Assembly (NCBI RefSeq): GCF_033153115.1
Contig: NW_026889764.1
Span: 12,834,001-12,898,000, forward strand
DNA: 64,000 nucleotides
Direction: 5' to 3'
From: Saccostrea echinata
Taxonomy: Eukaryota
Shown here: positions 21,901-24,164 of the stretch, piece by piece
Position numbering within the stretch: position 1 is the first letter of the stretch
How the letters are laid out: each line of letters begins with the position of its first letter
Made by a program: the position numbers and the translations under genes
Notes under the pieces: generated by a model
The model's database searches: none
Told to the model about the DNA's origin: nothing
What the model saw: the letters and a program-made list of their open reading frames with translations, nothing else

Positions 21901-24164
21901 CAAAATTCCACATGTAAAATAGTATCAAGAATTAAATGATTAATTGTCATACAGAACAATGATTTTTATTTACTTTTGAAATGAATAACAATTGACAACA
22001 GATGATGTATATTTTACTAGTTTTTAGTCCTGAAAAAACGCAATGTTTATCAACAATGTTTGGACATACTGCTGAAGGGACTACACCGTGTCCGACACTG
22101 TGTCCGACAGCAAACATAAGCGAAGAATACGCTTGTTTCAGCAGCAATGGTAAGTGAAAGTAAATCTTATCAAAAGAATCACTAAATAAAACCGTGAAAC
22201 TATTTGATTTTGTGTTTATACGAGGATTCATCCAAAAATAATTCCACAACTGCTATAAAATCTTTGATAATCGAAAGTTTTCAAAAACTGATATACTAAA
22301 ACATCTTTCTATTTTGACTCTTGTACAAAATTTTCATTCAGATTTATGCAATGCTTAAAAAACAATAAAACAACTACAACGTTTGGTCTCGCCTATCACG
22401 GCACGGCAAGAATGTACAACGTCATTATGACGTTTATCTTCTTCATTAAAAATGACAGCTGTAGATAAATTCAGTAATTTTTTTTAGTTGAAGAGTGCAT
22501 CCCTAAAATCAGTTGTAATAGACCTGCATATAGATGTTGTAACGTATCCAATATAAATAACTGTCCTACCTGTCTATCTACGCGGAAACAAAACTCCCCT
22601 CCCTAACAAAAGAGCGCACTAAGGGAGATAATCTCGGAACTATAATTATATCCTACCGAGGAAATTGGAGGAGATAAAATAATGCGCTAAGGCAAGTGTG
22701 AGTGAGTGTGTGCGTGCGTAACGAAATACCCCAAAAATGATTTATATAGTAAATAAAGGATGATGTACGGCAAGGAGGAATAACCCTCTCCTTATAATTA
22801 GAGGAATAACTCTAAGAACGAATCAGTATATTTCCTTTATAAGATATTCATAATCATCATTGAGTGGCGCAAAATTTTTAGCATTTAGTAAACTCAATTT
22901 ACTTGAATTTAATATTACCTTCCTTTTGAAATAAAAAAAAATATTATCATTATAAAGAAATTTAAATTTCACTGTAATGTTCCTAGTATACATTAAAATA
23001 ATAAAACAATATGATTAAAAAATGAATGCAAATTAAACAATTCTATAAGTAAACAGTATTTACTTTTGTATTTTTATTCATTTCAATATATTAGGAAAAA
23101 TTTATTTTAAACAATTATTCCTTGATTTCAAAGTTCGTACACTTTAGCAATACTAAGTAGTTTCAGGTTTTAGAAATGCAAATATTACATAAATATGCAA
23201 CATAGAATATTCAGTAAATTTTTACGTATTGAAATCAAAATACAATATATTGATACTGTGAATATATTATATATGTAAATGTATTCATTATCTTACATCA
23301 AAGGTACACCTCTTGGTCAGATTATTGGTGCGGCCCTAGGCGGAGTAGGATTTACTCTGCTCGTGATTGGCATTTCTTTCTTTTTGTTAAGAAAGATGCG
23401 AAATATTAATAGTTCTGATAAGTAAGTAAAAAATTATACCATAACTTGTTTTTCTTATTATAGTTGATTATAATCTTTCTCATACTATGTTTTTTTTTTA
23501 TGTAAAAAGCCTTTTAAAGACTTACTTACCAGTCGTACACAACATATATTTATATTATCATTCTCCAGAGTACCTATGGAAATGGCAACACAAAACCCAG
23601 CATATGGAAGTCAATCAGATATGGCACCTTTGCAACACAACAACTTGAGAACTAATACAGTGAATAACACGGAATATTACTCCTCTATCAATGATAATTC
23701 TGTTAAGGTAAACAGGGATTCTTTGCNNNNNNNNNNNNNNNNNNNNNNNNNNNNNNNNNNNNNNNNNNNNNNNNNNNNNNNNNNNNNNNNNNNNNNNNNN
23801 NNNNNNNNNNNNNNNNNNNNNNNNNNNNNNNNNNNNNNNNNNNNNNNNNNNNNNNNNNNNNNNNNNNNNNNNNNNNNNNNNNNNNNNNNNNNNNNCTTTT
23901 CAGGTTGAGCAAAAATTATCGAATGTCCGACCAATAGTAAGATACGAAAATGATCCAAGATCATATCAAGTTAAAAATGACCATGAGATATATGACCACC
24001 TTAATGAATCAAAACCTAAAGATAATAATGACGATTATGATCATGCATTACCGGTTACAGTTACTAGATTACCAACATCGACAGAGTACGATGTTTTGAG
24101 ACACTCCAAGTCTCATAATGAGTACACAGAAGTGATAGGCGATGGATTTCAGCAATGTAGTTGA
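18985..24164 (+). CDS. Paralog 2: intact 338-aa type I transmembrane Cys-rich receptor-like protein (8 coding exons)
   Basis: Exons 18985-19000, 19123-19210, 19889-19953, 20045-20245, 22021-22149, 23304-23421, 23569-23707, 23904-24164. All introns GT-AG, phases 1,2,1,1,1,2,0 join in frame, 1017 nt total. Protein: MMITRRHFKHFTHVLILFTLSSLKGKCVLSSLLIE/INCLGKILSRYRDIYSCPWDI/TNTCSAGNLTCQEVESDC...RCPCRNVAFVCNLTSNIP/VFSPEKTQC...PCPTLCPT.../GTPLGQIIGAALGGVGFTLLVIGISFFLLRKMR.../...QNPAYG.../...YEND...IYDHL...YDHA...TEYDVLRHSKSHNEYTEVIGDGFQQCS*. Confidence 0.88.
20300..21306. mobile_element. Non-autonomous DNA transposon in paralog-2 intron 4
   Basis: taaggccacataaatttaaaatttagattctcatcc ... ggatgagaatctaaagtttaattttacctggcctaa TIR; ggcggg subterminal motifs; absent from the matching intron of paralog 1. 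Confidence 0.75.

Follow-up and report, generated by a model that had tools for sequence, protein, structure and literature searches.

Here we analyse a 64,000-nucleotide stretch of Saccostrea echinata DNA (contig NW_026889764.1, positions 12,834,001 to 12,898,000; hereafter the window), AT-rich animal DNA that carries four paralogous genes (P1-P4) and one gene fragment in tandem, all on the plus strand. A protein labelled Saccostrea echinata at its source matches, letter for letter, exons elsewhere on the window's contig (C15). P1 (3151..15786) is recognized from its sequence as a damaged copy with intact tail motifs, and P2 (18985..24164) is an intact gene of eight exons for a type I membrane protein of 338 aa, with an open frame, GT-AG introns and assembled contigs in its support. 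P3 (29309..33394), a 270-aa model built from DNA only, has a P2-type ectodomain and a short tail with five tyrosines; P4 (35980..48342), a 382-aa model of ten exons, has a full tail, with six joints from 42660 to 48037 present in contigs and its first three exons placed from DNA only. The fragment (58033..58179), found by sequence comparison within the window, duplicates a piece of the last exon of P4 and contains two stops, and no upstream exons for it were found within the window. A 2.5 kb duplication (48016-50486 / 58012-60553) includes a portion of the last exon of P4, interrupted by stops, together with downstream DNA. Two copies of a 1.06 kb element (24572-25635 and 56496-57534), bounded by terminal inverted repeats of ~50 bases, likely represent a non-autonomous DNA transposon, and introns of P1 and P4 harbor short tandem or inverted repeat arrays at 14100-14484, 44780-44920 and 46555-46700.

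The P2 exons, joined by GT-AG introns in one open frame, lie at 18985-19000, 19123-19210, 19889-19953, 20045-20245, 22021-22149, 23304-23421, 23569-23707 and 23904-24164 (plus strand), and the protein runs from a signal region through an 8-cysteine domain of ~88 aa, a Thr/Pro stalk and a membrane segment into a tail of ~140 aa with nine tyrosines. Two exons encode the ectodomain (19889..20245), described from its sequence and from the predicted fold of the homologue P0001; the Thr/Pro-rich stalk exon (22021..22149) is seen in both sequence and contigs, and the membrane exon (23304..23421, intron phases 1 and 2) contributes overlapping small-xxx-small motifs and basic stop-transfer residues. 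The interval singled out in the initial annotation, 23569..24164, comprises the last two exons of P2 and one intron. Joints 19210-19889, 20245-22021, 22149-23304 and 23421-23569 are present, with GT-AG ends, in contigs of four sequencing runs, which represent two studies and no more than three samples and whose RNA nature is a guess. At the fifth joint, contigs continue from 23707 into the last exon; the last-exon part of these contigs aligned on P1, and six of the seven listed differences, compared by eye, are P2 letters. The first exon joint was not seen in the contigs, which cover joints from 19210 onward. The suggestion that the tail is attached to a small and different ectodomain is borne out, on a receptor that is indeed spliced.

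An ectodomain-only model of P0001 (residues 28-122; pLDDT 83, pTM 0.72), built on an alignment in which 11 of 21 rows come from groups of unproven homology, predicts one helix and four strands; the full-length model reached a pLDDT of 55. Foldseek returned no match for the ectodomain-only model and none at E 0.001 for the full-length model, where helix matches alone appeared, to the membrane segment. The best VIA-align result for the ectodomain-only model (Z 3.2 over 45 residues, rmsd 3.2) decides neither for a new fold nor for a known one. Pfam gave no match at cut-off, EMI and EGF included, for P0001 or for the ectodomain exons of P3 and P4, a PDB sequence search gave membrane-segment matches only, above E 0.002, and Atlas gave no usable match for the ectodomain.

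P1 carries a stop at 12388-12390 and a frameshift in its stalk exon, and has lost both the orthologous donor after the membrane exon and the acceptor of the NPAY exon. An open P1 frame would require three alternative splice sites, none of which was seen in the RNA contigs, those of P1 being few and short. If the orthologous stalk acceptor were used, a stop in 12368-12390 would end P1 just past the ectodomain, giving a possible secreted form that was likewise not seen in the RNA contigs. Between P1 and P2, dS is 0.89 in the ectodomain and 0.15 in the tail; taken exon by exon (11193-15786 vs 19889-24164), it is 1.8 and 0.76 in the ectodomain and then falls through 0.43 and 0.23 to 0.11 in the direction of the last exon; furthermore, informative sites shared by P1 and P2 relative to a S. 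cucullata protein are concentrated in the membrane exon (8/10) and last exon (17/27) as compared with the ectodomain (11/28). Together, this 3'-ward drop and the concentration of shared sites suggest gene conversion of the 3' part between P1 and P2. Because P1 is damaged and its tail has been homogenised with that of P2, it is no independent witness for conservation of the tail. The P1-P2 dN/dS of 0.62 in the tail indicates weak constraint, from few changes; at 0.18 in the same comparison, the window's own ectodomain is, by this sequence measure, not hypervariable.

P3 is the sole paralog found via its ectodomain alone, which is of the type common to P1, P2 and P4, and its tail has lost the motifs, with neither NPxY nor the YxHL/YDHA pair. 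Its tyrosines (SIYES, VYNTV, IYNL, TYLVL) sit at the first sites of the tail family described below, with differing flanks. P3 is a candidate decoy, or a candidate member with different wiring; no spliced P3 contig occurs among the matches listed, which does not imply that P3 is silent. P4 is spliced like P2, with one extra stalk exon (43215-43337).

Tyrosine motifs in the window and in other oyster species

The first tail exon of P2 (23569..23707) encodes NPAY (Y218, 23594-23605) and YYSSI (Y242/Y243, 23675-23689). Its last exon (23904..24164) encodes YEND (Y266, 23943-23954), YDHL-x11-YDHA (Y282 and Y297, 23991-24047) and YDVL-x8-YTEV (Y314 and Y326, 24087-24134), the latter extending as YTEVIGDGF to 24149 and overlapping TEYDVL at 24081-24098, and stops short of the last YFxLE site of the family. 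The same motif series starts in P1 at 15313, 15574, 15622-15678, 15712 and 15718-15780, and P4 has NPAY at 44307, YENS at 48073, YNHL-x11-YDHA at 48118-48174 and YGIL-x9-YTEVVGEGF at 48208-48273, all on the plus strand. The series that the initial annotation had read in these three genes (NPAY, YEN(D/S), Y(D/N)HL-x11-YDHA, YxxL-x8/9-YTEV) is thus in place throughout, and we add two sites that it had not listed: one ending the NPAY exon (YSSI, YTSI, YTQI), and the site that comes last in the family, which P4 has as YLVLE and which is absent from P1 and P2. The complete P4 order is therefore NPAY, YTQI, YENS, YNHL-x11-YDHA, YGIL-x9-YTEV and a last YLVLE.

Residues between the motifs were said to be poorly conserved between P2 and P4, and indeed identity is 24/57 for residues no more than three from a tyrosine and 16/81 elsewhere. 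A colinear chain of five tyrosine-anchored matches links the two tails. When the P4 tail was shuffled 20,000 times, 5 shuffles reached such a chain; P2/P4 motif colinearity is beyond chance. The broader claim of conservation in distant paralogs survives for this pair, but not for P1, which is not independent, nor for P3, which has neither NPxY nor the pair.

Measured against named signalling motifs, the tails are less orthodox. Strict ITAMs (two YxxI/L half-sites 6-12 apart) are found in none of the three window tails (P1, P2 and P4), where single YxxL sites are present and one pair fits the pattern if Val is allowed. No canonical ITIM is present in P1-P4, and no window tail has the near-hemITAM form [ED][ED]GYxx[LIV]. 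The ITSM pattern is TxYxx[VI], and the ITSM-like TEYDVL noted at the outset is present in P1 and P2 but only there.

Five proteins with the window-type ectodomain were found in S. cucullata, Ostrea edulis and Magallana gigas, and were assigned as orthologues by similarity and a tree rather than by synteny, P0001, P0025 and P0092 grouping with P1/P2 (support 98/97) and P0012 and P0046 with P4 (82/75). All five keep NPAY, Y[DNS]HL, YD[HL][AV] and YTEV, and four keep the third YxxL/I/F; the Thr of TEYDVL is kept in none, P0001 reading SDYDVL at that place. Conserved pYxN is the mark of Grb2-docking receptors, and the proposal of a conserved Grb2-type site fails, with YxN in two of the five orthologues and 5/31 family members with a membrane segment. 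In the other oyster species, tyrosines are retained more often than the residues around them (6/9 vs 59/134, 7/9 vs 47/134, 9/10 vs 54/144 and 8/10 vs 42/144). The orthologue comparison, which the initial annotation had proposed as a check, is biased towards conservation because its proteins were reached via the tail profile or its clusters.

A tail family and its exon cassette

A profile from six last exons matched 69 proteins among 1.84 billion, of which two, P0051 and P0068, were dropped before counting as unrelated repeat proteins. The first pair, of a form like YxxL-x11..14-YDHA, is present in 67/69 profile matches, a census that is partly circular because the collecting profile itself holds the motifs. 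Within the 67, the first half-site reads YNHL in 50 and the second YDHA in 51, the spacing is 11 in 51, 12 in 12, 13 in 3 and 14 in 1 (11 or 12 in 63/67), and acidic residues flank both tyrosines of the pair. Among the 31 members in which a membrane segment precedes the pair, NPxY is exact in only 10, or 20 under a relaxed pattern; the exact motif is kept in P1, P2, P4 and all five orthologues. The same 31 members carry a YxxI/V-x-D/E site in 19, a third YxxL/I/V/F in 22, a second pair in 12, a last YFxLE-type site in 21 and YxN in 5.

Strict ITAMs occur in 7/67 family tails. The first-pair tyrosines are spaced 15 residues apart, as in Draper; the second half-site YDHA is non-canonical, as recognized from the start, YxxA lying outside the ITAM consensus YxxI/L. 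Strict hemITAMs, defined by three acidic residues, x and YxxL in the available text of PMC12582321, occur in 0/67, with the near form [ED][ED]GYxx[LIV] in 19/67 at the third site. The canonical ITIM pattern ([ILVS]xYxx[IVL] in the excerpted text of PMC9546547) is found in the last 170 residues of 21/67 family proteins, in one case inside a membrane segment.

Of 21 family clusters looked up, 19 carry names, all of them oyster proteins with neither a functional name nor a tested function. Our literature search, which covered main texts and few subscription journals, found no paper on the tail family, nor any on the six locus tags of it that were searched. In L013:1273-1608, P0008, P0053 and P0113, the last of which may be a model artefact, either the YDHA unit or the greater part of the tail is duplicated internally.

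At the genome level, an 18-base pattern gave 67 matches vs 200 in a reversed control, and the raw count is thus not enriched. A second site lies downstream in 26/67 of these genomic matches (22/63 plus 4/4) vs 0/16 of those reading YNHF, and only this downstream second site separates real genomic copies. The copies cluster on contigs C11, C15, C29 and C76; some, though not many, may represent haplotypes present twice in the assembly. Two same-strand arrays, C11:1.42-2.13 Mb and C76:0.31-0.69 Mb (L081-L090 and L127-L137), hold tail genes with EB-like exons upstream. Eight further tails (L085, L089, L098, L103, L110, L112, L113 and L119) read YNHL[NH]E with a different second site, so the first half-site appears from these sequences to be more widespread than the pair.

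Comparison of gene structures points to a three-exon membrane-plus-tail cassette that is likely reused behind different ectodomains in other oyster genes. Intron phases 1 (before the membrane exon), 2 and 0 are common to P2, P3 and P4, and recur in P0004, which has a small cysteine head, and P0106, with an EGF-like/EB-type head. The heads joined to the cassette comprise the 8-cysteine domain of the window, EB modules, small cysteine domains and bare stalks (stalk-only ectodomains in P0037 and P0056), the EB and small-cysteine links resting on database gene models. EB modules exceeded the Pfam cut-off in P0107 (41.9 vs 24.3 bits), the only match at cut-off among the 32 proteins in that scan, and EB-like exons lie upstream of the tail in 6 of 28 genomic stretches scanned. 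No profile similarity was seen between the window domain and the small-cysteine or EB heads.

In Magallana, P0033 and P0099-P0105 have variable six-cysteine heads on a near-constant stalk, membrane segment and tail; in three proteins of this group (3 of 12 rows compared), identity to P0033 is 74-76% for the head but reaches 97-98% for the tail. Pooling the window ectodomain with two Magallana six-cysteine groups on the basis of aligned cysteines was tried and is unsupported: leave-out profiles gave E of 0.14 to 23, and hhalign gave 0.3% and 1.3%, no better than shuffles. We therefore do not read three label changes on the ectodomain tree as independent gains.

Readings of the tail

On balance, we lean towards the P2 tail being a putative phosphotyrosine docking tail, for a tandem-SH2 kinase and a PTB adaptor, on an oyster membrane protein that is spliced, crosses the membrane once and uses the shared cassette. 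More likely than kinship with Draper is that an uncharacterised family of receptors reuses this tail for signalling. Ligand binding would cluster the receptor via the small-xxx-small membrane segment, and a Src-family kinase would then phosphorylate the clustered tail. The pair Y-[ND]-H-L x11 Y-D-H-A, near-invariant and with its tyrosines 15 apart, could serve as the docking site of a Syk- or Shark-like tandem-SH2 kinase, as could a second pair, YxxL x7-9 YxxV, in some members. Precedents exist in the accessible portions of earlier reports: Y934 and Y949 of the Draper ITAM are 15 apart and recruit Shark (PMC6219719), and the oyster ITAM receptor CgIgR recruits CgSyk (PMC6994640). The membrane-proximal NPxY may bind a PTB adaptor and lead to internalisation, much as NPxY is described, in the text available, to bind CED-6/GULP and drive internalisation (PMC4055271). 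The putative role is most likely recognition and uptake signalling in innate immunity. We count against the docking reading the YxxA second half-site, outside the ITAM consensus, the rarity of strict ITAMs, the motif loss in P3, the exact NPxY in only 10/31 members and the weak P1/P2 tail constraint.

Both NPxY and YxxL/V commonly serve as sorting signals in endocytosis, and the YxxPhi sorting pattern is satisfied by YDHL, YDVL and YTEV. Perhaps, then, the tail is a trafficking module in which NPxY and several YxxL/V serve unphosphorylated as clathrin sorting signals, on uptake or adhesion receptors with no kinase relay, a reading we consider unlikely. It agrees with the rarity of strict ITAMs, with the drive to internalisation attributed to NPxY (PMC4055271) and with indications, in the part of PMC8092387 consulted, that PTB binding of NPxY may need no phosphorylation. 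However, YDHA belongs to the best-kept element of the tail and is no YxxPhi signal, the spacing of the pair is near-fixed, and seven to ten tyrosines with acidic flanks would seem to exceed sorting needs.

The docking reading also has to be weighed against a module of inhibitory or mixed character that SHP2 or SHIP would read, its members set at different points from activating to inhibitory like paired receptors, which we judge quite unlikely. The ITIM patterns of 21/67 family proteins, the one within a membrane segment included, the SDYDVL of P0001 at P2's TEYDVL and the shortened tails of P3 and of P1/P2 would fit such a module, and an oyster ITIM receptor recruits CgSHIP2 according to the available text of PMC11841013; yet patterns as short as the ITIM turn up by chance, P1-P4 have none that is canonical, and the -2 position varies between orthologues.

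Descent from an oyster Draper/MEGF10 gene, as an engulfment receptor with a swapped ectodomain, is very improbable: NPxY precedes a tyrosine pair 15 apart as in Draper, whose second half-site may read YDHL as well, and EGF-like EB members exist, but the 67 matches include no long EMI/EGF-repeat receptor (longest 363 aa), the ~88-aa window ectodomain matches neither EMI nor EGF, and all 19 named clusters are oyster proteins of no functional name. An EMI search of the genome for an oyster MEGF10/Draper gave no match, and its control search gave no signal either.

Going further, phosphotyrosine docking might rest on a tandem motif of the oysters' own, Y-[ND]-H-L x11 Y-D-H-A, read by a tandem-SH2 protein instead of a canonical ITAM and carried on a three-exon cassette shuffled at its phase-1 junction behind at least four unrelated ectodomain types, one an uncatalogued disulphide-bonded domain, yielding dozens of germline-encoded receptors in clusters, whose heads vary while their signalling output stays the same. 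We offer this wider proposal tentatively, as somewhat unlikely when taken whole. Oyster Syk signalling is known from a few single receptors; if the cassette signals as we infer, some dozens of oyster membrane proteins that still lack a name would gain an output at once from a single peptide-binding experiment. The definition of the ITAM would then be widened to the YxHL/YDHA form, and the receptor clusters would merit testing as disease-resistance loci in farmed oysters, like the single-pass clusters of snails. If the tail only sorts cargo, it would still be a clear example of a tail reused through exon shuffling.

Comparison with known receptor systems

The initial annotation called the tail Draper-like, and as an analogy of layout this may stand. 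Like the engulfment receptors CED-1, Draper, MEGF10 and Jedi-1, P2 is a type I receptor with NPxY upstream of a pair and further tyrosines outside it, as far as the available text of PMC8092387, PMC6219719 and PMC4055271 describes them, and its first-pair tyrosines are spaced like Y934 and Y949 of Draper. CED-1/Draper/MEGF10 combine an N-terminal EMI domain with multiple EGF/NIM repeats (PMC8092387, in the section seen), unlike the window genes, which have no EMI domain or EGF/NIM repeats and a YxxA second half-site. Tails of that group carry an ITAM (YxxI/L-x6-12-YxxI/L) or, as in CED-1, a single YxxL; the window tails hold no strict ITAM but do have single YxxL sites. With an ectodomain that has no EMI or EGF repeats, the window proteins are, judged by sequence, not Draper/MEGF10 members, and the tail belongs to what appears to be a family-wide oyster cassette.

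Closer to home, CgIgR and CgCLec-HTM are oyster membrane receptors with tyrosine motifs (an ITAM and a hemITAM) that recruit CgSyk, and a Syk pathway thus exists in oysters, according to the accessible text of PMC6994640 and PMC12842671. As described there, they differ in having Ig or C-type lectin ectodomains and in being single genes rather than a shared cassette; furthermore, the ITAM of CgIgR is canonical, and the sequence printed in the available part of PMC6994640 has no YxH pattern.

Transmembrane adaptors such as SCIMP and GAPT resemble the oyster proteins in that little or nothing but a stalk lies outside the cell and that the tail is disordered and rich in tyrosines, and were the nearest Atlas clusters to a family tail (0.83 and 0.78), scores that fall below the tool's 0.9 level and serve only as leads. 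They are vertebrate families; in the oyster family, a folded ectodomain with cysteines is found in most members.

Among molluscs, Biomphalaria too has clustered, divergent genes for single-pass membrane proteins, GRC/PTC1 and PTC2 (PMC7494358, PMC13712769); those clusters are mapped to parasite resistance, and the portions of the two papers available describe no shared tyrosine tail. Finally, the Alr genes of Hydractinia and the fester co-receptors (FcoR) of Botryllus are, in the excerpted text of PMC9546547 and PMC12582321, clustered invertebrate type I receptors accompanied by pseudogenes and bearing ITAM, ITIM, hemITAM or non-canonical paired tyrosines. In those systems, as far as the same excerpts describe them, an Ig ectodomain is shared and the tail varies; the oyster cassette appears to be the inverse, in which the tail is shared and the ectodomain varies.
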